Shown here: positions 7,433-41,423 of the stretch, piece after piece
Layout: each line of letters starts with the position of its first letter
Numbering within the stretch: position 1 is the first letter of the stretch
NCBI GenBank assembly: GCA_002245135.1
Contig: NGBS01000057.1
Coordinates: forward strand, 1 to 41,423
Direction: 5' to 3'
Source of the DNA: Proteromonas lacertae
Taxonomy: Eukaryota
Length of the DNA stretch: 41,423 nucleotides
The notes under the pieces: model-generated
The model's input: only the letters and a program-made list of their open reading frames with translations
Databases searched by the model: none
Told to the model about the DNA's origin: nothing
Position numbers and translations under genes: made by a program

Positions 7433-7651
7433 CTTGATATTCATTTTAATTAATAATTTAAAAATAATATATAGTTTTTTTATATGTATAGTTTTTTTTA
7501 AATAATAATAATATTTGTATATAATTTGTTGTTCAACATCAGGATGATATTAAAATATGATGAATAATACTCATTAATGATTAAATGTTGTAATTCTAAT
7601 ATACATCCTTTTAAAATGTTTCGAATAAATAAAAATAGCAAGTATATATTA

Positions 7652-9606: not shown

Positions 9607-9649
9607 TTCTTGATCCCTAAGAGTTATCTAAGGAGTGGCAAGATGAAGT

Positions 9650-11700: not shown

Positions 11701-11713
11701 TATTTCTTCAATT

Positions 11714-13083: not shown

Positions 13084-13106
13084 ATTCTAAATAATTTTCA
13101 TACATT

Positions 13107-15309: not shown

Positions 15310-15427
15310 TAAGGTTGTTAAATGTGATTATCATATGCATCTATCATTCCTTTTTAGTGAGTTAGATAAATAAGAATTAAATCTTAGAGAAAAATTATGT
15401 AATTCTTTTACATTTAAAATATATATG

Positions 15428-16739: not shown

Positions 16740-17331
16740 ATATTAAGTACAGTCAAACTCTTTTATATCGAACTTTTTCTTATAAAAACTCATTTAGCAT
16801 TTACAATGTATATCAATACTTATTTAGAAATATTGTAATTAAATTAAATATATTATGTATATATAATAGTTCCATTTTGTTTAGATTCTACAACTAAATC
16901 TACTTAATTAACACATTTTTCTATCTTATTTTCTTTCTAAAGATATCAATTAACAAATACTTTTGTACTAGCTGGTAAAAGTGAAATTAATTCATCGCCT
17001 AAAAGAAATATAAAACAAAATACCTATTTCATTTAGAAATTTAGTCGTTACATTATTCATTTTTCTCTCCTTTTTCATAGAATATACTATGAATGCGAAG
17101 TTTATCTTTCATTTTGTTATATATGCACTGCAATCTATAGATTTAAAACAAAAACAAACATTACATAATTTGATTTAAAAGCTATAAATAACAGATTAAA
17201 AACCATATCATATCAAAATAAACTACACTTATTTTTCATTTATCTATAAAATTACAACCCAAAACAACAACTGCATGAGAAAAACGAAAAATTCGATATA
17301 TAAATATCGATATATACGGGTTTGACTGTAT

Positions 17332-18259
17332 ATGAAAATTTATAGTATTATATTATTAATTATTCTCTTTAATACCATTTTTATATGTTTAAATTATATT
17401 TTGTTAATTAGAAGAAATAAATATATATTAGTTGTTTATACATTATTCTTTATGACAAATAATAATACTAACAGATATGCTATTCAAAATCTAGTATTAC
17501 AAAATCTAAAACAACTAAATCAGAATAAATGTAGATTTGCAATATTTATTGATAAAAATAAAACAATCTATTATAACTATCGGAAATTATTATTTGTACA
17601 GTATAATTTATAGTATAATATAGAAATGAAGAAATATTTATGGAACTCCAATGTTTGGTCAACTATTACATAAAGTAACTATATTATTCAATTCAGAATT
17701 CTATATGTATATTAATGGAGATATATTAATATCCCCTTTATTATTAGACTTCTTTATTACATATAATTTTAAATTACATAATAATAGAATATATTTAACT
17801 TGTGATAGACATAATATATATATTAATAACTCTTACTATATTCAATCTAACAGACATGAACTTATATATATAAAAGGACAACAATACACTCGATGTGGTC
17901 AAGATGTGTTTATCACTATGAAAAACACATTTAATAAGGAACAAATGTTTATTTTAAATAATCTCGCAATAGGAAGAATTGGAATAGATAATTTAATATT
18001 AGGTATTGCTATTAATGATGAAAATATTCTCACAATCGATATTAGTGATATAATTCAAGCTGTACATATCCAATATTCTAAACCAAATGAATATACATAT
18101 ATTATAAAGAAATATGACTATAACTGGAATTATGAGATTATTAAATTATTAAATAAAAGAATAATTAAAGTAGCTTGCTTAAATAAAATAAACTGCTATT
18201 ATAATAAATATTTATCAAAATTTATAGGAAGGAAGAATTGTTTTAATTTGAATTATTAA
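17332..18259 (+). CDS. Putative glycosyltransferase (GT-A like)
   Basis: TM; a 31-nt intron at 17601-17631 gives FVQNIYGTPMFG; FYMYINGDIL, GQDVFI, GRIGIDN. Confidence 0.6.
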
Positions 18260-18343
18260 TATATATGATTATATAAAGCAAATAACAGGATATAACATTT
18301 TAAATAATAGTCAAATAACAACGCTACAATAAACCTAGTTTAA

Positions 18344-19195
18344 ATGATTTTATTATTATTTTTAATATTTTTTCTATTATTTACTTTTATAATGATTTCA
18401 AATACTTATAGAATTATAAATAATCATTGTCCAACTCATTACAAATTAATATCATCTGGATCTTCAGATAATCATTTTCATTTATTATTATTATTTCTAT
18501 ATAGATTATATACAGTAGAAGATAAAATATGTATTGTTATATGGAACTTAGGATTATCATATACTAATAGACTCCAATTAAATAATGCAAAGAAATATAT
18601 TGAAAAGGATAGTATTTTTGTTGATGTAATTACATTTAATTATACAAATTATCCTACTCACTTCAATATCAACATAAACGCAGGATACTATTCATGGAAG
18701 CCGTTTGTAATATGGGAAACTTATATAAGATATAAAAGAACAATGCTTTGGTTAGATTGCGGTTGTTATATTCATTATAAATTAGATTATGAATTTCAAG
18801 AAATTATCAAAAATCAGATATATACTATTAATGCTACTTGTAAAATCAAACGTTGTACACATTATGGATTACTTCAACTTTTTAATGTAAATGAGAGCTT
18901 GTATAACAAAGTAATGTGTGCAGCAGGAATATTAGGTATAGCTTATTATTCTGAAAGAGTTAATTATATTTTCAATATTTGGAAAGCTTGTGCATTAATA
19001 AAAAATTGTATTTCACCTCCAGGATCTCGTAAAGGAAATCATCTACAAGATCAAAGTGTACTGTCAATAATACTATATCAAAATAATATAAATTTTAATA
19101 ATTTTAAAAGAAAAGGATTTTCAACACATTTTGATAAAATCTATAAATTCTATAACGATTCATCATTTAATGATTTTTTAAAAGTAATAAAATAA
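18344..19195 (+). CDS. DUF1647-like putative glycosyltransferase
   Basis: SSDNHF, WNLGL, YSWKP, WLDCG, NHLQDQSVLSI. Confidence 0.7.
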   Translation: MILLLFLIFFLLFTFIMISNTYRIINNHCPTHYKLISSGSSDNHFHLLLLFLYRLYTVEDKICIVIWNLGLSYTNRLQLNNAKKYIEKDSIFVDVITFNYTNYPTHFNININAGYYSWKPFVIWETYIRYKRTMLWLDCGCYIHYKLDYEFQEIIKNQIYTINATCKIKRCTHYGLLQLFNVNESLYNKVMCAAGILGIAYYSERVNYIFNIWKACALIKNCISPPGSRKGNHLQDQSVLSIILYQNNINFNNFKRKGFSTHFDKIYKFYNDSSFNDFLKVIK

Positions 19196-20220
19196 TGCAT
19201 TATTTTATAGACAGTTATTATTTATACTTCTTTATAATTATATTTATATTATCATTTAACTTATTCACTAACATTTATGAGAAAACAGATTTATCCTACC
19301 AAAATTACTTTATGAATGAATTATCTGCAATTAATGCTTGTTGCGCAGATACTGCACCAATTTCATGTAGCAGAAAATATACATTCTCTAACAATAATAT
19401 AAAAAAAATTGGGCCAAATGCAAATAAAAAGAAATATTATAGATTCTATTCAGCTAAATATGTTAATTCTTTTTCAAGTAGAAAATCAAAAATACTAATA
19501 GCATTACACTCGCATATATCTTTATTCTACCATAGATACGTTTTTAGAAATATTTATAAACCTTACAAAAATATACAATTATTATTTTTCATTGGTTTGA
19601 ATATTAATGAAACATATAATTTTGAGTTATACAAGGAAATGAAGAAATACAAAGATATAGTCTTATTTAACTTTTTTTGTAATTATTATAGACTCTGTCT
19701 TTTAACATACAATTTTCTTATGTGGGTAAAGGAATATCAGAGTTATTATGATGTTATAATAAAACATGACACAGATACATTTTTAAATCTATTGTTAGTA
19801 GAATCAGTAATAAATAGGATAATTGAATCAAATATATCGTTTGTACTTGGTAAAATATGGCATTTACATTCAAAGAATAAAATGTATCCTAGTGGAATGT
19901 CATACATTTTTTTATCTAGATCTATTGATAAACTTATTAATAATGTAGATAAAATTATATATAATATGAAATGTAGTTTTGAAGAAGATATGTTGTTTGG
20001 GCTTTTATCAAGGATGGCAAATTTTACTTTTCTTGATACATATGAATCATTTAAGTTTAAGTCTTATATACACATACCAAAGTTCAATTTTAATATAAAA
20101 ACTACTTTCATGATTCATACTCTCAGAATAGCAGAAATAGCTTTTTTGAATTACTTACTAAATAATAAATTTAGCTGCAAAACCTGTTATCTAAATAAAA
20201 CTTGTAATTTACATAATTAA
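19195..20220 (+). CDS. Galactosyltransferase (GT31-like)
   Basis: EMKKYKDIV, IIKHDTDTFLN, YPSGMSYI, EEDMLFG; the start overlaps the upstream stop (TAATG). Confidence 0.8.
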   Translation: MHYFIDSYYLYFFIIIFILSFNLFTNIYEKTDLSYQNYFMNELSAINACCADTAPISCSRKYTFSNNNIKKIGPNANKKKYYRFYSAKYVNSFSSRKSKILIALHSHISLFYHRYVFRNIYKPYKNIQLLFFIGLNINETYNFELYKEMKKYKDIVLFNFFCNYYRLCLLTYNFLMWVKEYQSYYDVIIKHDTDTFLNLLLVESVINRIIESNISFVLGKIWHLHSKNKMYPSGMSYIFLSRSIDKLINNVDKIIYNMKCSFEEDMLFGLLSRMANFTFLDTYESFKFKSYIHIPKFNFNIKTTFMIHTLRIAEIAFLNYLLNNKFSCKTCYLNKTCNLHN

Positions 20221-20601
20221 TAAGTTCATTCTATGAAAAGAATTAGTGTAGAGTGTAAAATCTAAAACATCAGCTGCTCATACATCATAATATGACAAAA
20301 TGAAAATATATTCTAATATTTAATAATGAATTGTAATTCAACACATCAATACTAAAATATTATAATATAAAGTTTGAAAATATTATAAGTCTAAAAAATA
20401 TACCAAAGATATAAAACCATTATATTTTTATCTCTTTTATATCAACTTAAAAGTTTGAATATTAAATTGATATTTCTCATAAGTATTATGAATATTATAT
20501 CAACCTAACCGAAAAACACCGCTATTCAAAAACAAATAAGCAAGGTTAATAATTATCATAATATTAATATTTGAAATATATTCGTTTCATTTTATTATTT
20601 T

Positions 20602-20955
20602 TTGTATATTGTGTTCTATGGATTCAAACAATATCATAATACCATACACGTTATAGGGATAGTGGGTAAATCAAATGATCAAGACCAAAAGAAACAAAAT
20701 TTAGAAGATAAGAAAATGCGATTCAGTCAAAAAAGAAAAAGGGAAAGGGATATGATTGATAATGTGTGTAAGTACTTGTATGGAGAAGCAGAATGTACTG
20801 ATGATGAATCAGATGGCTATGATCCAGAAGATGATCCAAATGCAAGTGATGATAATGATGATATAGAATATGATGGTGAGTTCAATGATGAGGATGAAAA
20901 TGACATATGGTATGACGATTATGATATTGCTGATATTTTTGATAGTGTAATCCAC
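20602..20955 (+). other. Acidic ORF fragment of unknown function, cut off by the GC-richer relic
   Basis: Basic patch followed by a D/E-rich tract; no clear ATG start; runs into the relic terminus. Confidence 0.3.
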
Positions 20956-21870
20956 ACCATAGTCCCATTTACGTGAGGCTCTTACGTAACGATCTCTTAC
21001 AAGATGATTTAAGAGCCTCTCTATTCTATGGGGTCTCTACGATTGTGATTCATTATCCAATATTAAGGGTATTTTGGCCTTATTGTAGCTTTCATTTTCC
21101 TAGTGATCTTGATTTCAACAACTCAATACTCTTTTGATCTTATGAAGAGTTAGCAATCTTCCTCATCGTCTGATGATATTCCTAAGTGCAAGGGTAAGCA
21201 TCATCGTCTACAAACAGACTCTGAGATCTTTGTAAGCACTATGGACAACATTACGATCGATGGTATCTCATTGACTAAGCCTAAGAGAAGATCATCATCC
21301 ACGTTGAAAGCAAAGCAACAGAAACTCAAGGTAGTTGAACTAGATGGAATACAACAAGCGATCCGGGCTGCTTTAATGAAGAAGAGTAAGGAAGATGTCT
21401 TTACCTAGTTATCCTAAAGAGCAACACGCCTTATTTCCATCTACACCATCATTCAATGCCCAGGAGAATCTCTCTTACAATGACTACTTGGATCAGTTAA
21501 GGAAGAAGTTCAAGAACCTCGGAACCTACTTGAAAGTCATCCTCAAGGAGTACATACACTTGATGATCTTTCCCAATGAATGCTACAATGCTCTTGTCAA
21601 GATGATAACGTAGTAGGACTCCGAAGGAGTTTTCTTAATCTGCATCACTAGATCAAGATCCATTGATAAGAACAACTTCAAGAAGATAGAGCATGAGTAC
21701 TTGCTTACCCGTCGCTATCAACTCAAGATTATCTCCTAGAGAATGGATATTCTAAGATCAGCCTTAAGAACCATCCAAGAACGCCTTGAAGATATACAAC
21801 ACTTTGTCAAGGACAGCTAACATCAATTGAATATCAGTTGGATAACTTTGGAGCTTTTTGAACTTTAAAC
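20956..21870 (+). mobile_element. Truncated relic related to the hairpin-ended element, carrying a decayed ORF
   Basis: 20956-20986 matches ITR 28975-29005 at 25/31 nt; GC-richer; reading frame ~21142-21868 broken by TAG/TAA stops and one frameshift. The right boundary is approximate. Confidence 0.6.
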
Positions 21871-22517
21871 AATAAGATTAAAAATAAGTTAAAAATATAG
21901 TCAACAAAAATCAAAAATTATTAATGAATCAAAGAATAGAAATATCGTTAGCAATATTGAATCATTATTATGGAATGAATGTTCATCTACTTAATATTTA
22001 GAAATGGAAATGATAATTAATAATTCAAATTCTGATGAAAATTAGTATATAACAACAATTCATAATAAAATCAATTGTAGTTTTAATAAATACAGTTACA
22101 AAGGTATAGCTAATGGTTGTTTTTAAGATTATTTTATTTCCGATTAAAGTTAAGAATGATTATACCAGTGATATTGAAAATAATATTACATAGTACATTA
22201 ATAGATAATATTGAACGTGAAATAGTTGAAAATTATAATGTAAAAGAAATTAATAAAAAAGAAAAAAGAGTTAAAAAATAAAGTATAATAATATGCTTAC
22301 AGAAGTAAATATTTATTATATTATAAATCAATTATCTTATAATAGAAACGAAGAAATATTAATATTAGCAATTATCCTTTTTCTAATAAAGAAAAATAAA
22401 TAATTTAATGTAATTGAAAATGATATTGTAATTAAATATATTAATGATGAAATTTTAAAAGAACATAATATGGAAAAAAGAATAGATGTTCAAACATATT
22501 AAAAATATAGTTGATTG

Positions 22518-22790
22518 TTGTTGTGCGCCGTTTGTCATAGTTGGCCGTTTGTCTACCAAACGCTTTTAAAACAAAATAAATGTATATTCTTACTTGTCTT
22601 GATGAAAAATTGTTACTTTTATACTTACTTTGTTGTATGACCTATATCTGCAGTATACTTTTTTGATAATATAAATAGTTTGAATATTTGCGCCGTTTGT
22701 TTTCTAATAATTTTTGAAGCAAATTAAATGTATATTTAGCTAATATAGACTAGCTGAAATAATTAGAATATAATAATTATTAAATCTTTC
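22518..22790. mobile_element. Solo left arm of a family B fold-back element
   Basis: Near-identical to 9650-~9930. Confidence 0.8.
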
Positions 22791-23349
22791 ATACATATAT
22801 AAAGATAAATAAATCTAATCATTCTAAAGGAAATATATAAATGATTCTACACTCTAAATAAATTACAATGTATTATTTATATATTCACAAATATAATTTC
22901 ATTATAATTAATTAAAATTGCTTCTATTAAATGAAATTAATATAAATGCAAAAATGATATGTGCAATTTTTATTGATTTAATAATTACAATCATCTTTTA
23001 AAATATTAAGAAATTATATAATTCCTTAATGATGCTACGTAAAAATTATCATAACACTCATAATATTTATTATGAAATATGCAATCGATTGTGATGCTTA
23101 TTTTATGAATTATCTTCTTATATACCCCATGCTCAAAATTTAAATCTATGTTGAAAAAATTTCTCATTCAATATTTTGAAGTAGTTATATTATTAAAGCT
23201 GAAACTTATTATATTATTAATAAACATAAAGATGCACAAGTATATCTAATTAGAATTGACGAAATCCCTCTAGAAACCCCATGTTCAATCTATTGAGCAC
23301 ATGTTCAAATGTAAAATACCCATAAATAATCATACTTGATTGTGCAATT

Positions 23350-24390
23350 TTGCATATGCAAATTAAATATATAACAATTTTTCATATTAGTTTTATTATG
23401 ATTATTATATACATTTATTGTGTATATGATGGTCTTTCAATAATAATATATGTTGTATTTCCTAATAAAGGTAAAGGAGGCCCGAAATCTTTATCGTATA
23501 ACATTAATAGAGCAATAAAGTTATGGAATGAAAAAGAAAATTTAAAAAAATTAGCAATACTTATATCAGAAGAGAATATGGAATTGAATAGACTAAAAAA
23601 TCTAACTCAGAGAAGAAGAACAATTATATGGCTGCAGAGATCAAGTTATATATATTTGGCAAAGAATCCGATGTATAATAGTGTATTTGCTAAAGTTATA
23701 TATGGCCCGAATGTTACACCATTAAAATGGTTTAATTCAATAAATAATACATATGAGAAATATTGGTGTAGTATTATGAGAAATATTTTTGGATATGTAT
23801 TGCACTCTAATAGAGTAAAGAAACAAGTCATTAAAAACACTAACTGTTATTTCTATGATAGAAAGTATTACTTCCTTAAACCTTGCCTTGAATTTGATTT
23901 AGACATAAATAAGATTAATGAATTGTATAGAAGACCGATAGATTTTTTGATATACATAAAATATGCTGATATAAATAGAAAATTGGATGAATTCATTTTA
24001 GTAGAATATCTAAAACAAAAATATAAAATTAAAATTATCAAATATGGAAATCATTCTAAAGAATATTTATTATTCATAGCAAATAAATCAAAGTTTGTGA
24101 TATATTTTTCATTTTATGATACTGGAGCTCTATCATTATTGGAAATGAAATCAATGGGTACATGGCCTATTTCACATCAAATAGAATTTATTGAAAATGG
24201 ATTTGGTAGTTATGTAAAAGAATTAGATACTAATATATATAATTCTCTAAGTAAAATAGATGATATATATAAAATAAAATATAATCCTAAATATCTGGCT
24301 AAAAATGTATACAACAACTTAAACTGTGAAAAATCATTATATAACTTAATAAAATATATTAAACAATCATTTGATTTGGCTGTACAATAA
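23350..24390 (+). CDS. Putative GT-B (GT4-like) glycosyltransferase
   Basis: TM, GKGGP, YGPNVTP, FVIYFSFYDTGALSLLEMKSMG (D-x7-E motif). First ATG at 23356. Confidence 0.65.
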   Translation: MHMQIKYITIFHISFIMIIIYIYCVYDGLSIIIYVVFPNKGKGGPKSLSYNINRAIKLWNEKENLKKLAILISEENMELNRLKNLTQRRRTIIWLQRSSYIYLAKNPMYNSVFAKVIYGPNVTPLKWFNSINNTYEKYWCSIMRNIFGYVLHSNRVKKQVIKNTNCYFYDRKYYFLKPCLEFDLDINKINELYRRPIDFLIYIKYADINRKLDEFILVEYLKQKYKIKIIKYGNHSKEYLLFIANKSKFVIYFSFYDTGALSLLEMKSMGTWPISHQIEFIENGFGSYVKELDTNIYNSLSKIDDIYKIKYNPKYLAKNVYNNLNCEKSLYNLIKYIKQSFDLAVQ

Positions 24391-24645
24391 TATTTTAAAA
24401 GTAATAATACAACAAACAGCGCACATTATATTAAGAGTAATACAGATTCTTGCAATTAAATGTTTCTCTACGAATCTCAAACTCTTAATACCTCCAATGT
24501 TCTTTTAATTTTTATAAATGAAATAATTCTTTGTTGATTATGGTATATTATATTTATATAACATTTACAGACAATACGTTACGCAAATTTAAGCTAAATT
24601 AAGATTATTTCTTCAATGCGTCACCTTGGTAATAAACATAGAGTA

Positions 24646-25265
24646 TTGTTGTGTGCCGTTTGTCAAAGTTGGCCGTTTGTCTACCAGACACTTTTAAAAC
24701 AAACCATATGCATATTCTTATTTGTCTTGATGAAAAATTGTTACTTTTATACTTACTTTGTTATATGACCTATATCTGCAGTATACTTTTTGTTAATATA
24801 AATAGTATGAATATTTGCGCCGTTTGTTTTCTAGAAATTTTTGAAGCAAATTAAATGTATATTTAGCTAATATAGACTAAAATACATTAGCTGAAATGAT
24901 TAGAACAACTTAATGTTGATCATAAGACATTTAAAATGAAAAAAGAAAATATAGAATCAAGCCTCACTCAAGCCAGCTTTTTAATTTCTTTTTTAAATAA
25001 GTTGTTATTGAAACTATTGTAATCTATTTATATCAAATAATGTATTTTAGACTGTAGTAGTCACTGATACATTAAAATATAAAAAATATAAATATTAGTT
25101 TAATATTGATAATAATGAAGTTCATAAAGAAGTGTGTCACAGATATAGGTCATATGACAAACTAACTATATATTTGTTAATAACTCTTTATAACTAAGAT
25201 AAAAATGATATTAGTTTGTTTTAAAAGTAATTGCATGATGAGAGCGGCTCAACGGCGCACAACAA
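24646..25265. mobile_element. Chimeric fold-back element (B-type left half, A-type right half)
   Basis: The left part equals the reverse complement of B (10287 to ~9955), the right part equals A (~8639-8947), and the switch lies in TCAAGCCTCACTCAAGCC at ~24957-24974. Confidence 0.85.
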
Positions 25266-27030: not shown

Positions 27031-28785
27031 TTAAAGTATTTATGTGTATTATCTATTTCATTCTCTATATGCGTTATACAATCTATACAATTCATCATCG
27101 CAATTATCAACATATATATCAGCATCCAATTTACATTTCAGTATATTATTCAATGTATTACTCCAGATTTTACTCTTTGCATAATATTACTCAAATTAAC
27201 CATTACTGTCGAATAATCATTTTAATTAATAATAATTAAAGAAGTAATGTTATTCATTAATTTATGTAGAAAAATGATAATTTGTCTCGTATTCTTTGTT
27301 TTTCATTTTTTATTTGGTTGCATGAATAGTATTGATAAAAATTAATATTTCTATTTAATAACCAAAATATTATTATTATGGCGTAGTTATGCTTTCAAAT
27401 CTCAACATTTATTAAAAAAAAAATAAACAAAAGTTGCAAATTACATGACAATAGATCAGCATGAGATTTTAGAGATTTTGTATGAAAACTTGATAAAATA
27501 AGGAAAGAAGGCTTGATGCAAGTTTGAAACAATCACTTCAGAATCATTAGTTTTTTTAGTTTTATTTAAATTTTCTATTTTAAAATGTATGTACTATTCG
27601 TAAGAGAATTATTTTCATTTCAATAATTACTTCAATAGAAAGTATGGTTATTTCTAAGTGGTGCAACCGTTTCCAACGGTTGTAATTCCGTTATGTCCAA
27701 TCGTTATTGAATAAATTAAGATTGCGCAAAATGTATTTTTGCATCTAATAAAATCTTCATATGTTGAGGGAATAAATAAAGATATACAAAAAGTATAATC
27801 TAATGAAAATGATATTACATATAAACTTGAAAGAGCAATAATGTAATTTCCATTTTTAAAAATTATGTTATATCTTAGGTATGTTATAAATAGTCTTGGA
27901 TTATCTGTGCATTAGATTATGCTATAGAAAACACATTTGAGTTTTTGACAATTCTTTTTTTAAATTATTCTCAGTATATATAAAGATGCTGTGAAAAATT
28001 TTAATGCATGAAAGTACAAATCGAACTTAGCAGGATGCCAAAATTTTAGCATTTAACTATATGAAATATTGAAAAATGAAAAAGAAAAAGGTACAATCTG
28101 ACAAGTTTTGTAAACTCGATCTGAGTGAAGTATTAAATCCCTACTTTCGAAATACAATTTAAATTTCGAATTATCAAGTTTTGTCTTATAGTGAATATAT
28201 AGTTTTTTCTTTCCTATTGTTTTTATTATTTTATACTTTCATGCCTAACAAGAATGCTTTTTCTGTTAACATATTCTTTTAATACGTAGAAGTAAAGTCA
28301 TTTACAAGTTGGGGAAGTAATTTCCTTAAGTTGATAAGCACATTTTCAATTTGAGGAAAGATAAGTTGTAATATTTTCATTTTTTTCTACTTATGAAATT
28401 TGTTTATCTTCAATTATTCAAGGGCAGATATCAGGAAAGCGACTTGTTTTTATAAACCTGGCTAATTTTAATATTCTGAAAAAAATATATATATTTATAC
28501 TCTTTTATCTATATTTTTATAACATTTATTTTACAATATATTTTATTTTATTTAAAAGTAATAATGTTATGAATGAAAGAGATATTCCATTTAAAAGAGT
28601 AGTATTGAATAGTTTCTATTTAAGTAATTCTTATTACGATATACGATTTCAAATGATAAGAGTTTTAATTTCATATAATCCATTTAATAAATATAAATTT
28701 AGAATAACTGATTTATATTCTAATGAATTAAATTATTCAGTTATAGTATATGACAAATGTATGAGGTCTGAAGATATATAGTATA

Positions 28786-28990
28786 TAAATGTGACCCTGG
28801 TACAATTGTCACAGAGTTCTAACGAGTGTTCTAGGAGTCCGTCCCTTTCTAGATTCAGAGTTGACTTTTACGGGGCCTTCATCGATTGCATCGATGAAGC
28901 TCCCGTAAAGGTCAACTCTGAATCTAGAAGGGGACGGACTCCTAGAACACTCGTTAGAACTCTGTGACAATTGTACCAGGGTCACATTTA
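28786..28990. repeat. 205-nt terminal hairpin
   Basis: Arms 28786-28886 and 28890-28990 (101 nt each, 4 mismatches by manual comparison), loop TGC. Confidence 0.95.
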
Positions 28991-29159
28991 CGTAAGGTTC
29001 CTACGGAATTCCTCCTACGGGGTCTACTTCCTAAGGAGTCTACTTCCCTACGGGGACTCTTGGAAGCTATTTCTATACCTATCTATACCTATCTATGAGA
29101 CGATCTCCTACGGGTACTCCTGGAAGCTATCTAGAAGTGTTGGTCACCTCGAGGTGATG
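28966..29159 (+). repeat. Left inverted terminal repeat
   Basis: Reverse complement of 36498-36691, 4 mismatches in 194 nt. Confidence 0.95.
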
Positions 29160-29249
29160 ATTCTAATCACGCTCTTGACTCTCCTTGCTACGCTGGTGAC
29201 CTTGTAAGGGCTTTTAATTGAATCGTGGAAACCAACTGGGGAACCGGGA

Positions 29250-29339
29250 GTTTACAATTGTTAACTTGTTACCAATTGTTAACTAGTTACCAAATGGTAA
29301 CAAGTTAACAATTGTTAACAAGTTACCAAATGGTAACTC
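29250..29339. repeat. 5 x 18-bp tandem palindromic repeats (iteron-like)
   Basis: GTTTACAATTGTTAACTT, GTTACCAATTGTTAACTA, GTTACCAAATGGTAACAA, GTTAACAATTGTTAACAA, GTTACCAAATGGTAACTC. Confidence 0.9.
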
Positions 29340-29359
29340 CGGGAGGTTCTAGCTAGTTG

Positions 29360-30501
29360 CGGATTTCTCAAGGGCCCTTGAAGATAATGATTAGCAATCT
29401 CGGAAGGCTTGTGAAGGTATGTTTTATCATCCTTATAACTCTCCTAGATAAGTTCATCCACGACCTTCCCGAGAAGAATAGCCGTGTTGGCAAGGAAGGG
29501 AATCTCCCACGATGGGAGATTCCCTGACGCAGTCATGCACGGCTGGACGTATCTGGGAAGGTCTTGATGGTTCTTCTATTAATCAGTGACTTTATAACTG
29601 GAGGTTCTGGTTAGTACTGGATTTTCTCAAGGCCTTGAAGATCATCGTAAGCATTCTCGCTTCCTAGAGGTAAGTCTAATCGTCCTTGTTAATCAACTAG
29701 GTAACATTCAACTATCATCTATCCTAGCAAGGAAGGGATGTTCCTCCTTGAGTTACAGCTCAAGGAGGAACCTCCCGACAAAGCCATGGAACTTCCATCA
29801 AGAGAGACTTCATTACAAAGTCAAGGAACATCCACGGGATCATTGCCTAGGTATGCTTCATTGTCCTTATAACTCTTCTAGGTAAAGTTTAATTACATTG
29901 TCCAGGAGCTCACCGAGGAGATCACCATGATGACAAGGACGAGAGAAGTCCTCCTGAAGGCATAGCCGTAAGGAGGAGTTCTCTAGGACGTAGTCATGAA
30001 TGGTGATCGTATCAGGGGAGGTACTACACTTTGAGCAATAACAAGACCAGGAGATCTTCATCCAGTTAAAGGACCATTATCAGAACCTCTTTAAGCAATC
30101 AACAACTTTGTTACCACTCCAGTTAGGCTTCAATTTCTCAAGGGTCCTTGAAGATCATTGTTATCAATCTTGGGAGCCTTATAAAGGTAAGTCTTATCGT
30201 CCTTGTTAATCAACTAGGTAACATTCAACTATCATCTATCCTAGCAAGGAAGGGATGTTCCTCCTTGAGCTGTAACTCAAGGAGGAACCTCCTGACACAG
30301 TCATGGAACTTCCATCAAGAGACTGCATTACAAAGCCAAGGAACAGGATCATTGCCTAGGTAAGTTTCATTGCCCTTCTAAGACTTGAATCCAAGATGCT
30401 CCAGCTAGTTCTGAATTTCTCAAAGGCCTTGAAGATCGTGATAAACAATCTCGGGAGGGTTCTGTAGGTATCTTCCATTAGCCTTGTAAGTCATCTACTA
30501 G
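29360..30501 (+). ncRNA. Array of putative spliced non-coding hairpin RNA units
   Basis: Repeated leader TTTCTCAA(G)GG.CCTTGAAGAT (~29363, 29622, 30134, 30416); 31-nt GT..AG segments (29417-29447, 29670-29700, 29851-29881, 30187-30217), each followed by a stem-loop with conserved AAGGA/GACNNA internal loop. Expression unproven. Confidence 0.5.
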
Positions 30502-30549
30502 GAAGCTCCTTACATACCAGTTTAGTTTATTTATTCCTGAAGGTAAAGT

Positions 30550-31615
30550 TCATTCCCGAGGACAGCATCATCATCTAAGCAATCGTAGAAACGTGAATAC
30601 CATGATTGGGAAGCTTAGGATAAGTAGGAACTTACCTGAGCACTTGTTAGAGATGTTACTGGAGGTAAGCTAATGAGCAATTTCTTAAGGTCAATTCCCC
30701 ATCATCTGTCCAATGGAGATTGAATAGGAATCATTCTGAAGCTATTCACTAAATACTGTAGCTGAACAATACATATACTAGGATCAGCAATCCATAAGCA
30801 AGGTCAAGATGCCCTAGTGGGCAGACCAGGTACCAACATCCCATCCCCTCCGGGTTCGAACCCCAGTACAGCTACTGCTTATATCTGAACCACCTCCTAC
30901 ATAGCCTTGCCTCATCAACTCAGGAGATCGCCAGCAACTTCTAAGATCCAAATTCTAAAGAAAAAATTGAATAGAGATGAATCTGAGATGAACAGTTCAC
31001 TACGTAGTACAACAACAGATACCCTAGCACTAGAACGAGATCAACTGCAGGAGCTTAGGAAGCATTGAGTGACCCCTACTACAAGAAGCCTAGGAGTTGG
31101 AGGTGCATTCACAACTCTGATAAGGAAGGTTTAAAAATAGGGACATAGAAAATAGATCCTGGACTTAGTTGCTAAATTCCTGGACTTGGTTCACTACTGA
31201 TTACATCTACAGATCACTAAGCTAGGTTGCGTGATTGCCTAAGCTGATCCAAGAGGATATGGTAGTTAAGGGAGTCTTCAATAGCATAAGCTATGCTTAC
31301 CATGGTTCAATGTGACTGAATAGAAGATGCTATTCAAGTAAGATCAACAAGAGTTAACATCCATGGTTCACTACAAAGTACGTCTACAGATCAACTAACA
31401 TAAGCTGAAGGATTAACTGATTGAATGTATGAAGACTCTGGAATAGAAGTATAATCATAAGCATGATCAGGTGTTTAAGGATGTTGATAACTAGAACATC
31501 AAAGAAAGCAATACCTCCGATAGAAGGAATGATAAAATCAGACTTCATTGAAGAGATATCGATAGTTCATTACATAGTACAAGTACATATCACCTACTAG
31601 TAACTTAGGATCCAT
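30550..31615 (-). pseudogene. Possible heavily decayed minus-strand gene of the element
   Basis: ATG-led frame MDPKLLVGDMYLYYVMNY, then stretches broken by many TAG/TAA stops and frameshifts; no homology recognised. Confidence 0.3.
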
Positions 31616-31690
31616 TAGCGTAAGTCCAATACCAATGTAACAACAACAACAAATGCTAATATCAATAGTTCATATACGATACAACTACAG

Positions 31691-32575
31691 ATGAGATTGT
31701 CTAGTTCAATTTTTCCCTTGCAATCAGAAACAATGATTAAATGCTCATCTTGTCATATCAGGGCCTCTAAGGAAACCAATGCTGATGGATCTGGGTATTA
31801 TAAGACTTGTAGTAGATGCCGAGAAAGAGCAAGTAGACGCACAATCACTCTTATTGAGAAGCATCACAAGGAAAGGAACTTGTTGAAGAATGATACTAAG
31901 CCCGTAAGCGATAAGCTATCCTGCAGTAGATGTCATCGAAGCTTAAGTCTATTGTTCTTTAAGAATCCCGATGGAGGTTACTTCAATTGTTGCCATCGTT
32001 GTAGGTGTAGAAGGAGCCTGGCTAAACATAAGCAACAGTCCAAGAACTCCACCAATGCTACTCCCGATCCAGCTCTTGACGAATTAAGGACAAGGATGAA
32101 CCTAAAAATCCAACGCAATAGACAAGAGATAGTGAAGATGATCAAGGAGAACTCCGATCTATTCAACTGGGATGAAGTCTTCAATCAGACCTTTATAACT
32201 CCATGCAATAATTATCAACCAGCAAAAGAGCCTTGCAAGACCTTGATCTCGTTAGCATTAAGGAACAAGCAAGTCAAGATAGAGATAGATCCTCCGGTAA
32301 AGCCACTTCCAACCTGCTGCTTTATTACTCTCTACGATTGCTTAAGCATATTCAAGAATGATCTTCAACACGAGGTAGATTCAGCAAAGAATCGTAAAGA
32401 CCTTGATAATCCTCCTGTAAAGAGACCGATAACAAAACTCTCAGTATCATCACGAGGTGCTTCAAGTGATCCTCCAGCGAAGCATCTAAAGCTAGCTTCT
32501 GAAGCAACTCCTTACCCGGCGAAGTCATCAGAAGCAGTAGTAGTAAACGCATCTACTGATAAGGAACGTGATTAA
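31691..32575 (+). CDS. Cys-rich putative zinc-binding protein with two tandem CxxC...CxxC modules; likely start 31733
   Basis: CSSC...NADGSGYYKTCSRCR and CSRC...KNPDGGYFNCCHRCR; intact 294-codon ORF. Confidence 0.65.
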   Translation: MRLSSSIFPLQSETMIKCSSCHIRASKETNADGSGYYKTCSRCRERASRRTITLIEKHHKERNLLKNDTKPVSDKLSCSRCHRSLSLLFFKNPDGGYFNCCHRCRCRRSLAKHKQQSKNSTNATPDPALDELRTRMNLKIQRNRQEIVKMIKENSDLFNWDEVFNQTFITPCNNYQPAKEPCKTLISLALRNKQVKIEIDPPVKPLPTCCFITLYDCLSIFKNDLQHEVDSAKNRKDLDNPPVKRPITKLSVSSRGASSDPPAKHLKLASEATPYPAKSSEAVVVNASTDKERD

Positions 32576-32599
32576 CATTGTTGGTACATAGTAAAATGT

Positions 32600-33690
32600 T
32601 ACCTTGGGTATGACCGAGGACAATAGAAATAATCAATTCAAGGAGCCTTACGGAGATGAGCAACTCAAGGACATGGTAAGTAATCAATTCAATAAACTAA
32701 AGGAGTCTTGGATAAGTTAATGATAGTAAGGACATCAACAACCCCGAGATAACAACCTTGGATCAATGACTCTGAAGATCATGAAGTAGTTGTAGGTACA
32801 TAAAGAGTTACAATTGCAGACTATAGGAAGTGTGATCGATAATCCTTTACATGAGTAGTCCTTACTTATGATGCTAGGAATCATTACTAGTAAGTAAGTA
32901 AGTAGACCAGAGATATCGTATACTCCTCAAGTAGCAACACTGGCATAGATGTCCAAGAGTCTATAAGCTATCGATCGTAAGGTGATTATCAGTAGATAGG
33001 TAAATACACTGACTTCAATAACAATACCGAGACTAGTAGTGATCAGACTGAAGGCTAGTACATTACTGAGGATCAACAACTTCGATGAACTAGAACTAGA
33101 AGGAATTGTCACTTGAGGGGTTACCATCAGTTCAAGAGAGAGGTATCGGTAAAGATCACAAGTAGTTCTTCAAGAGATGTTAAGGATGAGATCAACTCTA
33201 ACTTCAACAGTCAGTCTCAAGGTACTTACCAGAGTGAAGACAAAGTACTTTATAGGTAATGCCTGCCACGTCCGAGAAGTCCAAGAAGGTAAAGGAGCAT
33301 CTGGAATAGAGACGATTAGTAGATCCTTGGAAGTCAAAGGTGCAAGTGAAGTCTACGGAGAGTAGTTGAACTTCAAAGGAGGCTTCTGACCATCGTATAA
33401 GTCTTATCGGAATAGAAGCATTGTAAGTTAAGATGGTAGATGATGATCGAGACTATGAAGTTCACAGCATAGAGATCACGCAACTCATTACAAAGACCGA
33501 TAAAGTCATCTACATCCATCAGCTAGTAATCGTAAGGAGTTGAAGTTCATCGTGTGGATAGAGTAAGCAAGGTACTTCTCGGGAGGTAGGTAAAGCTGTT
33601 GAAGGCCAGGACATGTTATGATATAAGAGATACCTGAGAAGTCATCTAAGTAAAGTAGCTCCTGGATCTATAAATAAAGTTCTAATCTGG
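32600..33690 (-). pseudogene. Possible decayed minus-strand gene of the element
   Basis: Successive protein-like minus frames (QELLYLDDFSGISYIITCPGLQQLYLPPEKYLAYS; MDVDDFIGLCNELRDLYAVNF; VDFTCTFDFQGSTNRLY) separated by frameshifts. Confidence 0.35.
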
Positions 33691-33706
33691 AATCATTACC
33701 TAGGCA

Positions 33707-36164
33707 ATGTTCAACACCGGGAACAACTTACGGGAGAACGATGAGGAGATGTTAAGGTTACTTAATACTATCGACAAGACTACTTACGATGTGAAGCAAA
33801 AGATAGATGGAAAGGTCGTTGTTAAGTATGATAAGGACGTGTTGTTCCAAGACTCCCAGGAAGTGATTCAAAAGGCTTTGAGTTCTGGTGAACTCAAGGC
33901 CGTGATAGACTATGATAAGATCAATCCTCCATTGGTAAGCACTATCCAAGAAGTCCTCCGAGGAACACCAGTCAGTATCAATCAGAAGCAACAAGAAGAA
34001 GTAACCTCATCCACAACAGCTATCAAGAGAAAGTTGGATGATCACTCGGAGGAGTCATCTACGAAGTTGGCTAAGCTAGAGACTGATCATCATCAACTCC
34101 ATGAGTACCTTCAAGGTACCTTACAACCAGATCATAAAGCTATTCAATCGACCTTAAAGGAAGTGCTAGATGAGACTGATAAGATTGAAGGTATCGATCA
34201 GAAGCTCCAGGAAGTCAAGAACCTATGTACTTTGCTTAACAACAAGATCCCTAAAGACTTCGGAGAGACAACTATCACATCCTTGAGCAATATTGCTACT
34301 TGCAGCAATGAACTTAAGCACTACACGGAGAAGCAATTACCAGAGTTGTATAAGAGCATGGAGGATGTAAGCTATATCCTTGAATCCACCAACACTTCAA
34401 TCGATCAATTGAAAGCATCGGAGGATGAGAAATTGGATCGTCTAAGTACCTTGTTGAAGTCATTATGCGAGAGTCTCAACATCGGGGATGTTAACGTCTA
34501 CGATATGATCAAGTACATCACTACGATGGATGATAAGAGCCTTACGAAGCTCACTGACTTAGAGAAGCAGATCAAAGTAGCCTCCGAGGAGTTGATCAAG
34601 ATGAAGAACAACTACGAGGAGTACAAGGCAATCAATACTGTGATTAACAATAACATGATTAAGTTCAAGGAGGTCTTACAAGAGATTGAGATTGCCAATG
34701 GTTACAACAAGGACTTCAAGAACCAGATGAATGCTATGGAGGAAGAGATCGCCGGGTTGAATGGAGAAGCTGACAAGACGAATACCTTCTGCACTGAGGA
34801 GAGAGCTACCGCTATTGACAAGACCAAGGGATATTGTAAGTAAGATAGATATCGATGATATCAACCAGTATTGTAGTAGCTCACAGAAGGAGAAGATTGA
34901 TAAAGTCCATGAGCTGATCACCGGCATAGCCATCGAAGATATTAACAACTACTGCTCCTTGGAGAGACTTACCATTGTCAAGAGTATTGAGGAACTGATC
35001 AAAGGATTCATTACCGATAAGAGAACTAAGGAGATCGACATACCGACAACACAATCAAGGAGTTTTGTACTTTCCGAGAAGTGCTGCTATCGATGAGACC
35101 AACACTGTTGTGAAGCACTTCTGTACTTCGGATCGATCGGAGAAGATAGATAAGTGTTATGAGCGTGTCCATGACCTCAACAAGGAGAGTATTAACCAGT
35201 TCTGTACTGAAGGCCGAGGTAACTTCATTGATACAACAAAGGCCAACACCGATGCAATCAAGATCAAGGTGGATTCTCTAAGTATCACGATGTGAATGCA
35301 ACCTGTGGCGTGGCTAGAAGGACTGAAGAAGACAACCTCCGAAGGAACTTTGGATGGCTTCTTTAACAACACTCGTAAAGGACTCATCGACACAGCTATC
35401 AACAATGCAGCTGCTATCAGAACCAAGATCGATGGATTCAATACTGGGAATGTCAATAGCTTCTGTTCACCAGCTCAATTAACCAAGGTCAATGAAGTAC
35501 ATTCAAAGATAGGAGACTGCCAGACAAGAGTCATTGAAGTCCAAGGCAAAGTCAACAACCTCAACAACCTGGCCGTAACTCAAGTAAACAACATTACCAG
35601 TGCAGCTCAATTAAGTAAGATCAACTCAGTCGATAGCAATGTCCAGGATGTCCAGAAGAAGTTGACCGAGTTGAAGACATCAGTAGAAAGTCTGGCTTCT
35701 CAAGGAGATGGATCATCGGAGATCAAGACCGTACTTAACCAGATGAGTAACACCTTGTCTTCGATATTGAACATGACAGCAGCTAGCATGGACTCTCCTC
35801 TGGTGGCAGTTCCCATAAGCTTCTATAGTACAGTAAGACCTGATTGTAAATTCGAATGTTTACTTAAGGCTTATGTCAATCGTGTAGAGCTGGAGTTCAT
35901 ATCAAGCAGCGGATGGATCGGGAAAGTGTGGGTGAAGGATGTGAATGCAAAGGGCTTTGCTAAGTTAAGGAGTGGTTCCATCTTGATAAGAAGATAAGTC
36001 ACTGGGTTGTTCCCAATCCTAGAGATCCTAACATGACTGATTATGACAGACACTTCCTTGAATTCATCCCCGCCGACAATTCAATTCATTGTGAATTCGG
36101 TATGATGCCAGGTAATGGAACAAGAGCAATCTGTATAGATGCTAACTTCAATGGTCCTCAATAG
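33707..36164 (+). CDS. Large (~800 aa) coiled-coil/repeat protein with a C-terminal globular domain, disrupted
   Basis: ORFs 33707, 34761, 35065, 35296 and a final frame (FHLDKKISHWVVPNPRD...FNGPQ*) join via frameshifts near 34828, 35040-35070 and 35975 and a TGA at 35293; shared repeat N-x-(F/Y)C-x3-(R/Q)-x3-(I/V)D. Confidence 0.7.
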
Positions 36165-36497
36165 TCGATGTGTGTTGGGTGAACTATCGGAGGATAACTA
36201 TAAGCAGTGACCACCTTCGGAGCTGCCCAACCATGCTGCAAATAGTTTACCTTGCTTTGTTGGGCAGCAACAACTCCAAGAGATTCAACAACCCTGGATG
36301 ATGATCAAATGAAAGTTCCTTCTCAATGATCCTGGTAATGAAGAAAGCAGTTCTTCTTCCGGGCATGGACAAGAACGTCTACGACGGAACCTTCCTTACC
36401 AAGTCCGATATTGCTCCGCAACATCGTCCTTGGTAAGGAAGCTTCCTCTGAGACGTTCTTACCCATACTCCGAAAGAGATCACTGCTTCTTCATTAC

Positions 36498-36698
36498 CAT
36501 CACCTCGAGGTAACCAACACTTCTAGATAGCTTCCAGGAGTACTCGTAGGAGATCGTCTCATAGATAGGTATAAGTAGGTATAGAAATAGCTTCCAAGAG
36601 TCCCCGTAGGGAAGTAGACTCCTTAGGAAGTAGACCCCGTAGGAGGAATTCCGTAGGAACCTTACGTAAATGTGACCCTGGTACAATTGTCGGAGTCC
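36498..36698 (-). repeat. Right inverted terminal repeat with a truncated hairpin arm
   Basis: 36498-36691 is the ITR; 36692-36698 GGAGTCC matches the hairpin arm after a 23-nt skip. Confidence 0.9.
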
Positions 36699-37475
36699 AT
36701 TTATATAGGTATATAGTGGTTAATAAATAAACATATCAATTACAAAAGAAATAATGTTAAATAAATATTCTAAGATTAAAATGTTAAATCAATATGCGTT
36801 TTTATAGCATTTTTCTTAGACTATCGCACATATAATTTGAACTAAATATATACCTCACGTTGCTTTTACTTATATAAAATGAGATTTTTTACTTATTTCA
36901 TTTCTTCACCACTAAACAATTTACACATTAATATGCCAAATAAGAAATCAACTGACAAAGCAACTATCCTACCTCTCAAAACACATACTACATCACTCAA
37001 AAAAAGAAATAATAAAAACAATAAAACCATCACTAAAAATATAGTCGTTTCAATAATTTAAAAATATCTTTCTTGTTAAGATGGTGTTGTCTACTAAAAA
37101 TAATATAATTCTAAAGTATTTTACTAGTAGCAATTATTTTGTTGAATAGATAAAAGGTATGACCTCATTGAGCGTTATTGAAGCAATTTAATAAGATGAA
37201 TATTTAAGCAATAAAGTTCCATTGTTCAATAAAAAATTGAAATGATTCGAAATATTCTAATAGTTCCATTATTTCAATAGTTGTATTAATGTAATAATCA
37301 CATTATTTTATACCAAACACAGTTTTATAGAAATATGAGAATAAGAAGTTCGATTTAGAAAAATATTCAAAAATTGTTTAATATTTGGGAATAGAGTAAG
37401 ATATAAGTAAATAGAGATAATATGCATATGTTTTAATGTATTTATTAATTGCTATTCTTATTCAATAAGAATGTA

Positions 37476-39340
37476 TCATTCTGCAATATAGAGTTCCGCC
37501 ATATTGGTAACAACATTCTTGATATCTTGGAGAAACGATGATATGAATGAACTAGTGTCACTGCAGTTGAACGTGAATTCTTTACCTTTACTGAGTAATG
37601 ATAAGTACCTTGGACTTCTTATGAGTAGAAGTAGCCATAGGCTCACGCTGTTGTAATTCAAGGCTAGAGGAAGTACGGGTAGATAATGCTTGTTGAGTAT
37701 TCATAAGGCAATGTCTTTCTCTCTTCTCTCGGAGGATCAGAAAAAAATGAATACAGAGATGCCTGATATTATAAGTCCATCCCAAGAACATCTGCATTAT
37801 CAGTAGAAGGATGGTAATCAAGATACATCGGATAAATCTAACAACATCTACTATACTCAATAGCTGGGTGATCTTCAAGGAACATCTGGACGTTCAAGAC
37901 AAGGAGGATTCAAAAGACTCTTACCAGCGCTTCGCCATGACAGAAGAACTCACGGAAGCTATAACTCCAGTAGCGACAACTTCTTTCAGCGACAAGCACA
38001 AAGCGATCAAAGTCAAAATCCATTACTCGGTAAGATCCAAGGAAGTGAACGATTAAGTAAATTGGTAACTCCCGCCGGAAGAAGTTCCGAAATGTTAACA
38101 TTCCGAAGTGAGTTGTGAATCGACATTCCCGGCATTGATCAATTTTCTTGCCTTTCAATCATGGTCATCTCAACTACTAATAGATCGATTGCTCCTTACC
38201 GTCCTCCTTTAGTTATGGAGGCTATACTTCATGGTCAACCTCAAATAGCCTTCATAAAAGCAATGCCTTATGAACACACTCACATGGAGTATAGCAATAG
38301 CCCGCAATTTGTTAATGGATTACTAGGACTCACCAGCCAAGATAATCCTTGTAATTTGATTTTGATCAAAGATGTTCCCTTAACAACCTCAGGGTTGAAG
38401 ATCATAGCATCATGCAGCAACTGGACTATACCATCGGTGAGCTCCTTATGCAATGTATGAGCCTATCTTCAAATCTACCGATAGTGATCCTTACCAATGC
38501 TACTCGAGATCATGTCTTTAACATCACTGATAAATATAACTTCTTCGTCCTCTCGGCAAAGGAACGATACGGACAATTGAGTTACAATAACAAGATGTGG
38601 AAGGTGGAAGCACTGCAATGGATCATGAACTACTACTTCGATGGCCCAATAACTTAGGGTACTTGATAAGGATCCCTTGGATGCACTTCATCTATCAGTT
38701 TCAATCCTTAAGAAGGCGATTCAACTAGAAGTAGGCCAGGCTGCTGATGGAGAGAAGCTCATTGGTACCATAGAGAAGTTGAACCTCAACCTTGCTTCCT
38801 TCTGTAGAGATCTCCGATCCTTCCACGTCCACTTAAAGAAGTAATTAATTAGTCTTTGTTTATTTTTTGTTGTCTTTGCTTAAATAACACTAAGCGTCCT
38901 CGTAAGTGATAATGTTCTTGGACCTTTATGTAAAGTCGTAGGAAGCAGATTGAGCTTCATAAGGTGATGATGGAACTTGGCAGAAAGGTTCTCAAAGTAT
39001 ATACAGTCATTATCAGGAGTAGGATCGGTATACCTGACCATCACTCCGAGATTCCTTATCTGTTGCTTCCTTATTGTTAAAGATCACGTACTTAGCTTCT
39101 TCATTCAAGGTGATCTCCTCCTACACATAATTGTAAAGGGCATCTAGGAACTAGTTCAAACAACATCGCTTGCATTCTTTAAGCGTCTTATCATGTTCTA
39201 ACCCTTTGTTCATAACTTGATCTAGATTCTCCCAACTTGTTCTAAATCTCTATTATAAGGAATGCAATTATGCACTCTTGTTGTACACCGTTGGGAGATA
39301 AATGGGTTTAGATTACGTTGAAGTTATAAACGTAACCTTA
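37476..39340. mobile_element. GC-richer multi-gene relic resembling the hairpin element in composition
   Basis: Several decayed ORFs on both strands (plus 38161-38844 via two frameshifts; minus ~38880-39215 with in-frame TAGs); TGGTAACTCC at ~38063 matches the last iteron. Boundaries approximate. Confidence 0.5.
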
Positions 39341-39928
39341 AGCTTAGTTTTCAAAATAGTTACGTTGGCTGCATATCGTATTGTTCTGTTTAACATCTAT
39401 AACATTAGCAGAAAACGAAATATAGTAACTTTAATTTCTATATACTTAATATTGAGATTGTAAAAGTAAGCTTGAAAGAAGGTTGAGCTCGATTTTTATT
39501 TTTCTCAGCTGATGTATTTTTCATTGTAGTAACGATTGAGATAAAAAAATATTGAATAAGTAAAATGAGTTTCATATATACAAGGCAGAAGCTTAAAAAA
39601 GAATATATCGAATATGTAGCTTATATGCCAAAGTAAGGTTATATTTGAATATAACTCACTACCAAACCCTCTACTGTCGAATTAGTTTTTAATAAAAACC
39701 CATTTATCTCCCAAAGGCGCAAATCTCCAAAGGCGTACGATATTTATGGTGTTTAACTAAATTAGACATATTAACTTAACATATAAATATGACAATATTA
39801 ACGAATATTTTTATATTATCTATGTTAGTCTCTATGAGTGGAGGAAACAAGTTTAAAAAGGCATTAAAATTGCAATTATTCGATGATGATTATGCCCATG
39901 TTAGATATACCAAAGTATCCATATAGAT

Positions 39929-40799
39929 TTAGAAGTTACTCTTTCTTTTAGCAAGAATATTATTCTTTGATTCTCTATTGCAATCAAATTTTTTGATAAT
40001 TTCATATCCCATTTCATTGAGAATTTGAAACATATTTTCTATTTCATAATTTCCATTCTTCTTCTTTCTTCCACATCCTACCTCCATATATATAAATTCG
40101 GATACATGAGTTTTTAAAAAATTCTTTCCTCCATCAATTAGCTCATATTCAGCACCCTCTACATCTATTTTTATCATAGCAATTCTTTTAGGAATAATTT
40201 TGTCAAATTGATCTAGTCTTTTTACATGTATATATTCCTTATAATCACTATGATTATAGTGTAAAGATGAATAACCCCAATTATTCTTCACAATTCTCAT
40301 TATTTGATTTTCATCCCTCTTTCCTAAAGCATATGGGTATATATTTATTAACTTAGAAAATTTATGATTGCTAAATGTAGTTAAACTGAATGGAAACAAA
40401 TTATTTGGAAGAGGTTCAAATGCAATAACTTTTACATTTGCACTAGCAAACACAAAGAGCATGAACCAATATTTGCTCCAAAATCAACAAATATCCCATT
40501 CTTACTTCCAGATAAATATATGTTATAAATCTCTTGACATTCAGGCCATTTACCTTTAATTCTAATGATGTTAGACACGTAGTCATCATTTCTTATAACT
40601 TGAGCAAATGACATGTTGAATATTTTGCTTGAGTAAAATATATGATTGATTATTTAATATAGTAGGTACTGTTACATATTTTAACATTTTATATTTTTAT
40701 TATTACTAATATTCTCCTTAGATACTATTTTATATTTATATGATACAAGATAATAAATATAAACACTATTAATAATGCATATAAAACCAAAAATTTCAT
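39929..40799 (-). CDS. FkbM-family methyltransferase with an N-terminal TM, frameshifted (pseudogene or assembly error)
   Basis: FVDFGANIGSCSL, VIAFEPLPNN, MIKIDVEGAE; frameshift at ~40460 and an unresolved break at ~40680. Confidence 0.8.
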
Positions 40800-41293: not shown

Positions 41294-41423
41294 ATGTTGT
41301 TCAGCTTTAAAACAAACTAAATGCATATTCTTGCTAATTTAAATGAAAAATTGTTACTTTTATGCTTAGTTAATCATTTCAGCTAATGTATTTTAGTTTA
41401 TATTAGCTAAATATGCATTTAGA
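41294..41423. mobile_element. Internally deleted family B-like fold-back fragment running off the window
   Basis: TTTAAAACAAACTAAATG...GAAAAATTGTTACTTTTAT joined to TAATCATTTCAGCTAATGTATTTTAG as in 10030-10080. Confidence 0.65.

Follow-up and report, generated by a model that had tools for sequence, protein, structure and literature searches.

A 7.9-kb insert with inverted repeats, a palindromic tip, and orphan genes on a Proteromonas lacertae contig

The DNA analyzed here, positions 1 to 41,423 of contig NGBS01000057.1 (assembly GCA_002245135.1; 41,423 nt, referred to as the window), comes from the protist Proteromonas lacertae and harbors an insert of ~7.9 kb that is bounded by inverted repeats, bears a palindromic tip, and carries only orphan genes. 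This element is foreign to its host in composition and codon use. Its GC content is 41.8%, compared with 21.5 to 24.8% in four samples of the flanks and 27.4% in a fifth (1 to 8000), and GC steps at the left and right ends, each time inside 50 nt, in agreement with the sharp compositional boundaries reported in a preliminary description of this DNA. The lysine codons AAG and AAA occur 73:15 in the cargo versus 26:107 in host genes. A/T runs of four or more number 16 in the cargo against 86 ± 8 expected, while the host shows 267 against 275. We give about even probability to the reading that an integrating DNA virus of a protist, of the virophage or polinton-like type, gave rise to the element as a non-autonomous derivative, which would be copied by hairpin priming and inserted with enzymes provided in trans. 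Replication, capsid, and integration genes are not recognizable in it, and dependence on enzymes supplied in trans is therefore the natural reading.

Terminal repeats and junctions

The left end is a 205-nt palindrome (28786 to 28990), whose 101-nt arms (28786 to 28886 and 28890 to 28990) enclose a loop of 3 nt and differ at 4 sites, 3 of them G.T pairs on the + strand. As DNA it folds at -118.5 kcal/mol (z -27), and none of 200 shuffled sequences was equally stable. Self-comparison of the window revealed no internal match to this hairpin, and the 155-nt core of the palindrome has no second copy in the window except for 7 nt at the opposite end. Self-comparison also delimits an inverted repeat of 194 bp, with its left copy at 28966 to 29159 (+) and its right copy at 36498 to 36691 (-); the first 25 nt of the left copy overlap the inner hairpin arm, and the copies agree at 190 of 194 positions (4 mismatches). 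Both the terminal fold-back and the inverted repeats of about 98% identity had been claimed in the preliminary description, and both hold. Within the left repeat, five CCTA(C/A)GG units recur with a 16-nt period at 29000 to 29120 and are candidate protein-binding repeats. The original terminal repeat probably measured ~374 bp, with the palindrome forming its outer 205 nt.

At the right end, the hairpin arm is represented by its first 25 nt (36667 to 36691). They are followed at 36692 to 36698 by 7 nt identical to 28834 to 28840, in the middle of the arm, and then by the last 5 to 6 nt of the palindrome. We read this stretch (36692 to 36703) as the collapsed remnant of a whole hairpin that has apparently lost its center. 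This remnant had been overlooked, and so had six more hairpins in the interior and, at ~20955 to 21040, a relative of the terminus; the last two are considered below.

The two junctions mirror each other exactly. The left one reads TATA|TAAATG (28782 to 28791) and the right one CATTTA|TATA (36698 to 36707), and host DNA (30,453 nt, both strands counted) contains the same 10-mer at two places, so that a match at the expected place by chance is unlikely. TATA is its own mirror image, and four boundary readings therefore fit: 28782 to 36707 with no target-site duplication (TSD), 28784 to 36705 with a duplicated TA, 28786 to 36703 with TATA, and 28788 to 36701 with TATATA. The TATA at 28782 to 28785 may thus be a candidate TSD or the outermost bases of the terminus, and that at 36704 to 36707 is its candidate counterpart. 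A duplication of TA, TATA, or TATATA is possible from these letters, and since four readings fit, the earlier statement that there is no TSD is unproven; the right boundary, formerly set at 36698, moves to 36701 to 36707. Mirror-exact ends together with a possible short target duplication suggest enzymatic insertion. On the 6-bp reading, the empty site would consist of three near-tandem TATATAG units (28770 to 28787 and 36702 to 36718), a post hoc observation that mildly favors TATATA.

Cargo, internal hairpins, and related islands

An intact open reading frame (ORF) of 294 aa with its ATG at 31691 (31691 to 32575, +) contains two CxxC...CxxC motifs, and its orphan product is likely to bind zinc. 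It is followed by a frame-broken region with codon periodicity (32580 to 33700), whose strand is unsettled: one run of the coding test was significant on the + strand, and another gave a stronger signal on the - strand with the + strand marginal (4/200 null runs). Next comes a long coiled-coil repeat gene (33704 to 36164, +) in at least five pieces, namely a 379-aa ORF (33704 to 34843) and the segments 34761 to 35096, 34999 to 35295, 35296 to 35997, and 35964 to 36164. Its product is largely helical by prediction, carries about eight loose repeats of 25 to 45 aa, and has a C-terminal part in beta strands, a shape that may be fiber-like. Coding signal is clear in the broken middle of this gene, where none of 200 null runs scored as high, and no long frames opened across the broken regions under alternative sets of stop codons. 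Assembly errors may account for some of the frame breaks; for multi-copy endogenous viral elements (EVEs), false stops and frameshifts of this kind are documented in PMC10120064.

Searches by profile and by sequence identified none of the ORFs, which thus remain unrecognized as the preliminary description had it, and the absence of a recognizable replicase, capsid, or integrase was likewise borne out by Pfam, PHROGs, NCBIfam, and PDB sequences. Across these four sources, a double jelly-roll major capsid protein (MCP), a minor capsid protein, a packaging ATPase, and a protease found no match; frames are broken, the profiles included none specific to polinton-like viruses (PLVs), and 28991 to 29159 lay outside the scan. 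If the ORF map is correct, there is no room for capsid, ATPase, and protease genes. Protein-primed DNA polymerase B (pPolB), primase-helicase, and RVE or tyrosine recombinase were also without a match in the same searches, in which frameshifts lower sensitivity. Among the intact ORFs and six-frame translations of the broken regions, no Pfam match was obtained to NS1/Rep (HUH, SF3 helicase) or a single jelly-roll capsid, and none was found to a helicase, telomere resolvase (protelomerase), transposase, or reverse transcriptase (RT).

The Cys-motif ORF had no relative in 738 candidates at E ≤ 0.001 or among 1.84 billion representatives, no viral locus, and no PDB match, and its best Atlas value was 0.81. 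One HMMER match, P0001, was rejected: it is a tandem repeat of 52 aa that sums weak matches, the best single stretch scoring 31 bits. For the 379-aa ORF there was no relative among 7691 longer candidates (near and shorter lengths lay outside the search), no locus in viral or prokaryote contigs, and a best Atlas value of 0.84. A 233-aa ORF had no phage match and recovered only generic coiled-coil families under the cutoff; one candidate stretch counted as its relative returned 0 loci, could not be examined, and was set aside. Single-sequence folds were poor (pLDDT 54 and 33), and fold searches with the first model (pLDDT 54), which barely covered the beta part, yielded generic helical hairpins only. 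Patterns of the terminal DNA matched 0 metagenome contigs and 0 viral contigs, and the left end had no match among plasmids.

Much of the left part of the body is occupied by hairpins. A 100-nt subterminal palindrome of 9/18-nt repeats (29244 to 29343) precedes an array of diverged repeat modules (29345 to 30640) with long stem-loops at 29445 to 29577, 29735 to 29776, 29905 to 30023, and 30253 to 30292, and four 30-nt repeats, decayed or non-coding, lie at 30990 to 31600 (+) with spacings of 194, 177, and 199 nt. The coding test gave no signal on either strand of 29345 to 31620 or at 35995 to 36330. By eye, 29345 to 30640 had been considered as a leucine-rich or other protein repeat; this was rejected, because codon-position counts disagree (4, 7, and 8 of 19) and null runs reach as high a score in 20 to 21 of 100 and in 29 to 44 of 200 cases. 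A rod-like hairpin of 167 nt (36333 to 36499) adjoins the right repeat and is more stable on the - strand, at -95.7 kcal/mol as RNA (z -14) versus -72.6 on the + strand. Among 74 windows of 150 nt across the body, 9 have a fold z below -3, of which 7 fall at 29190 to 30340, one at 36290, and one at 32790. An Rfam scan returned 13 matches, all under the gathering score, 12 of them to microRNA models on hairpins.

The two largest hairpins share a strand bias. G.T pairs number 3:0 on the + strand in the left tip and 5:0 on the - strand in the right hairpin; in both, they sit on the strand with the nearest 5' end, the pattern that displacement of each strand from its 5' end would produce. Two paralogous modules of the array keep their long stem although 9 of 43 predicted pairs are altered on both sides, a count that rests on two sequences to which the structure was fitted. 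This pattern of stems and G.T pairs would result both from selection for folding and from deamination in a displaced strand, and either suggests a single-stranded phase. The loop of the stem at 29736 to 29776 is inverted relative to its paralog at 30252 to 30292, which template switching could explain with no need of a function.

A related GC island at 20945 to 21830 (+) begins with a diverged copy of the junction between arm and repeat (~20955 to 21040), ~60 to 70% alike to that of the element, and continues into a frame-broken ORF that has no match to it. The shared terminus reaches a local score of 42, compared with a best score of 31 in 528 background and 264 element-body windows, and 0 of 2000 shuffles scored as high. 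A 13-nt pattern derived post hoc from the terminus sites has 3 matches, all at those sites, against 0.09 expected. The first 150 nt of the island are structured (z -4.7), and the island adjoins or interrupts an acidic host ORF (20575 to 20976). Because this island has a diverged version of the same terminus with a different ORF, the element probably belongs to a family. A further island, at 37480 to 39390, lies 780 nt to the right of the element, has a GC content of 39.5%, and shows a coding signal on the + strand to ~38850. Both islands share their dinucleotide signature, homopolymer avoidance, and codon model with the element, and the second has no terminal homology to it (scores of 21 to 24). 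At ~37650, a broken stretch without a profile match presumably resembles a Walker A motif. A 28-nt inverted repeat (39288 to 39315 and 39690 to 39717) overlaps the right edge of this island and is possibly a small host element with terminal inverted repeats (TIRs).

Host DNA in the window

The surrounding DNA is AT-rich and intron-bearing, and a profile scan detects a hybrid histidine kinase, a band-7 protein (with relatives at 79 to 86%), glycosyltransferases, and an FkbM methyltransferase. The histidine kinase gene (913 to 2675; HisKA, HATPase, and receiver) has an apparent frame break at ~1545, where it is one base short if the motif that we take as its reference is right; this suggests residual assembly indels or a pseudogene. 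A cluster of glycosyltransferase-like genes, several of them intronless, spans 10912 to 24390 and comprises two nucleotide-diphospho-sugar transferases, two galactosyltransferases, and one GT61, and the FkbM-type domain lies at 39929 to 40483 (-). Fold-back families resembling miniature inverted-repeat transposable elements (MITEs), AT-rich and with long TIRs, some of them nested or recombined, occur at 8356 to 8941, 9651 to 10286, 22509 to 22780, 24637 to 25259, and 41306 to 41423. The repeat at 9651 truncates a WD40-like gene fragment (9380 to 9620), which we take to be PWP2-like. One Blastocystis lineage is described in PMC12129017 with a GC content of 21 to 23% and longer introns, which is compatible with the host DNA and no more.

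Possible origins of the element

Palindromes within TIRs, beside TSDs, are reported in a preprint on Halocafeteria seosinensis (bioRxiv 10.64898/2026.07.28.741278) for four virophage subtypes (1, 2, 5, and 6) and one PLV subtype (4). There the palindromes, 52 nt long in subtype 5, are linked to replication genes other than pPolB, hairpin priming is proposed as a model without test, and fragments that lack most core genes retain their TIRs and TSDs. Our element resembles those types in having a protist as host, in its contrasting GC content, in TIRs that measure several hundred base pairs, and in a palindrome in the TIR. It differs in its size (7.9 kb versus ~24 kb), in a GC content above rather than below that of its host, in having no detectable MCP, ATPase, protease, integrase, or replicase, and in its extra internal hairpin modules. 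The mavirus-like elements of Cafeteria burkhardae, as presented in PMC8547959, are also TIR-bounded GC islands without target specificity; their TSDs are mostly 3 to 5 bp (range, 1 to 9), those of mavirus and polintons being 5 to 6 bp. They carry mavirus-related genes, however, and none is detectable here. Transpovirons, according to the accessible text of PMC8877843, are likewise helper-dependent linear DNAs of ~6 to 7 kb with TIRs and a zinc-finger gene, but they have a conserved helicase, for which our element has no match, and ride with mimiviruses; that text mentions no terminal palindrome.

TIRs of hundreds of base pairs around an insert of contrasting GC content, a criterion for virophages and PLVs, are present in the element. 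No defining gene was found, and it is therefore not classifiable as either despite its similar ends. This type of end is not undescribed, being known from one preprint; the long tip, the hairpin modules, the small size, and the orphan cargo are not described in the open-access literature searched, where no description of this element was found. The preliminary description saw an endogenized segment or satellite of an undescribed linear DNA virus or plasmid, in need of replication proteins in trans. Its foreign, TIR-bounded, and hairpin-tipped nature and its lack of recognized enzymes agree with that view; the insertion looks enzymatic, and the end type has been described already, which do not.

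From these features we infer a viral origin, hairpin priming, a TSD, and a helper. In the free molecule, each end would be a repeat of ~374 bp with its outer 205 nt folded back on themselves. Strand-displacement synthesis would start from this folded 3' tip as primer, and a nick at the base of the hairpin would restore an open end with the whole palindrome retained. An integrase supplied in trans would then join both open ends to a TA-rich site, creating a duplication of 2 to 6 bp, and a complete helper element would provide the enzymes for copying and insertion. The center of the right palindrome would have been lost later, either in the cell or during assembly of the sequence. The two end repeats are 98% identical, whereas 29345 to 31620 gives no coding signal, as expected if the ends are maintained in cis and the cargo is not; such a combination of well-preserved ends and dead or dispensable cargo fits a passenger.

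Several points weigh against this reading. No search yielded a viral hallmark gene or credible homolog, so that end design, size, and composition are what link the element to virophages and PLVs. Its palindrome is four times as long as that reported for virophage subtype 5 (52 nt), and it is whole at the left end only, with the collapsed remnant at the right. The TSD is just one of four boundary readings. The G.T asymmetry was spotted after the fact and is weak in five smaller hairpins (4:3, 1:0, 1:1, 1:1, and 0:0), and the label "non-autonomous" may be mistaken should genes be concealed by errors in the assembly.

The element could instead belong, as a segment or a satellite, to a multipartite linear DNA virus or plasmid with hairpin ends, so far undescribed and replicating by a parvovirus-like rolling hairpin or through closed ends, and have been captured by the chromosome; we consider this unlikely. 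In homotelomeric parvoviruses and densoviruses and in adeno-associated virus (AAV), the terminal hairpin lies in a longer inverted repeat, and a truncated hairpin can mark one integration junction. The left end of our element, with its 205-nt tip of few unpaired bases inside such a repeat, recalls the ends of homotelomeric Parvoviridae. In contrast to parvoviruses and AAV, the element is larger, has a protist host and a possible TSD, and gives no match to NS1/Rep or a jelly-roll capsid. A different ORF lies behind the related terminus at 20955, as would be the case in segments of one virus; all proteins are orphans, the Cys-motif ORF even against 1.84 billion representatives; and the paired changes in the stems, from two sequences only, suggest a single-stranded phase. 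However, segments of one virus usually carry near-identical ends, and the related terminus is just ~60 to 70% alike. Base-exact mirrored junctions and a possible TSD suit an integrase better than repair, and no signal of a HUH Rep, SF3 helicase, or protelomerase was found among intact ORFs and six-frame broken regions.

Slightly less likely again is a DNA transposon of the fold-back (TIR) kind, non-autonomous and loaded with orphan cargo, that would target TA or TATA and whose hairpins would arise by template switching and play no role in replication. Long TIRs that hold internal repeats, and a duplicated TA, are ordinary in fold-back and other non-autonomous TIR transposons; the element shares the former and possibly the latter, the host has several MITE-like fold-back families, and the inverted loop between paralogous stems is a product expected of template switching. 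Yet the cargo differs from the host in composition and codon use, no transposase remnant was found in intact ORFs or six-frame broken regions, and in self-comparison of the window the ends of the element matched no fold-back family of the host. Cut-and-paste transposition, moreover, has no need of an extra palindromic tip. A DIRS affinity has little in its favor, as the element lacks an internal match to its outer ends and any match to an RT or tyrosine recombinase.

More speculative still, and to be held as doubtful, is the proposal that the element is one segment of a multipartite DNA virus of an AT-rich protist. Its linear molecules would have hairpin telomeres, a common terminal signature, differing orphan genes, and single-stranded modules folded at each 5' end, the island at 21 kb would be a further segment, and an integrase that accepts opened hairpins would insert them with base-exact ends.

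It is improbable that the element is small and autonomous, with its replicase, integrase, or capsid hidden by extreme divergence and assembly frameshifts. The broken region at 32580 to 33700 retains codon periodicity, false stops are documented in multi-copy EVEs (PMC10120064), and the host kinase gene has an apparent one-base break. Against this, 29345 to 31620 is coding-silent on both strands and filled by hairpin modules, which leaves ~1.1 kb of coding-like DNA beyond the Cys-motif ORF and the coiled-coil gene. That the terminal fold-back is a sequencing or assembly artifact on an ordinary TIR element, as a whole hairpin at one end only might hint, is very improbable, given that the two arms are mismatched at 4 sites, a core of 155 nt is otherwise absent from the window apart from 7 nt at the opposite end, and the fold-back ends at the base that mirrors the right junction.

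This non-autonomous candidate bears on how PLVs and virophages that lack a protein-primed polymerase copy their ends, for which the hairpin-priming model was put forward in one 2026 preprint. With marker mismatches in arms and loop, the 205-nt tip makes this model testable by sequencing, and a minimal element would define the sequences required in cis. Since the proteins of the element have no detectable relatives, a helper, if there is one to be found, would represent a viral lineage of very high divergence in a protist that has been poorly sampled.

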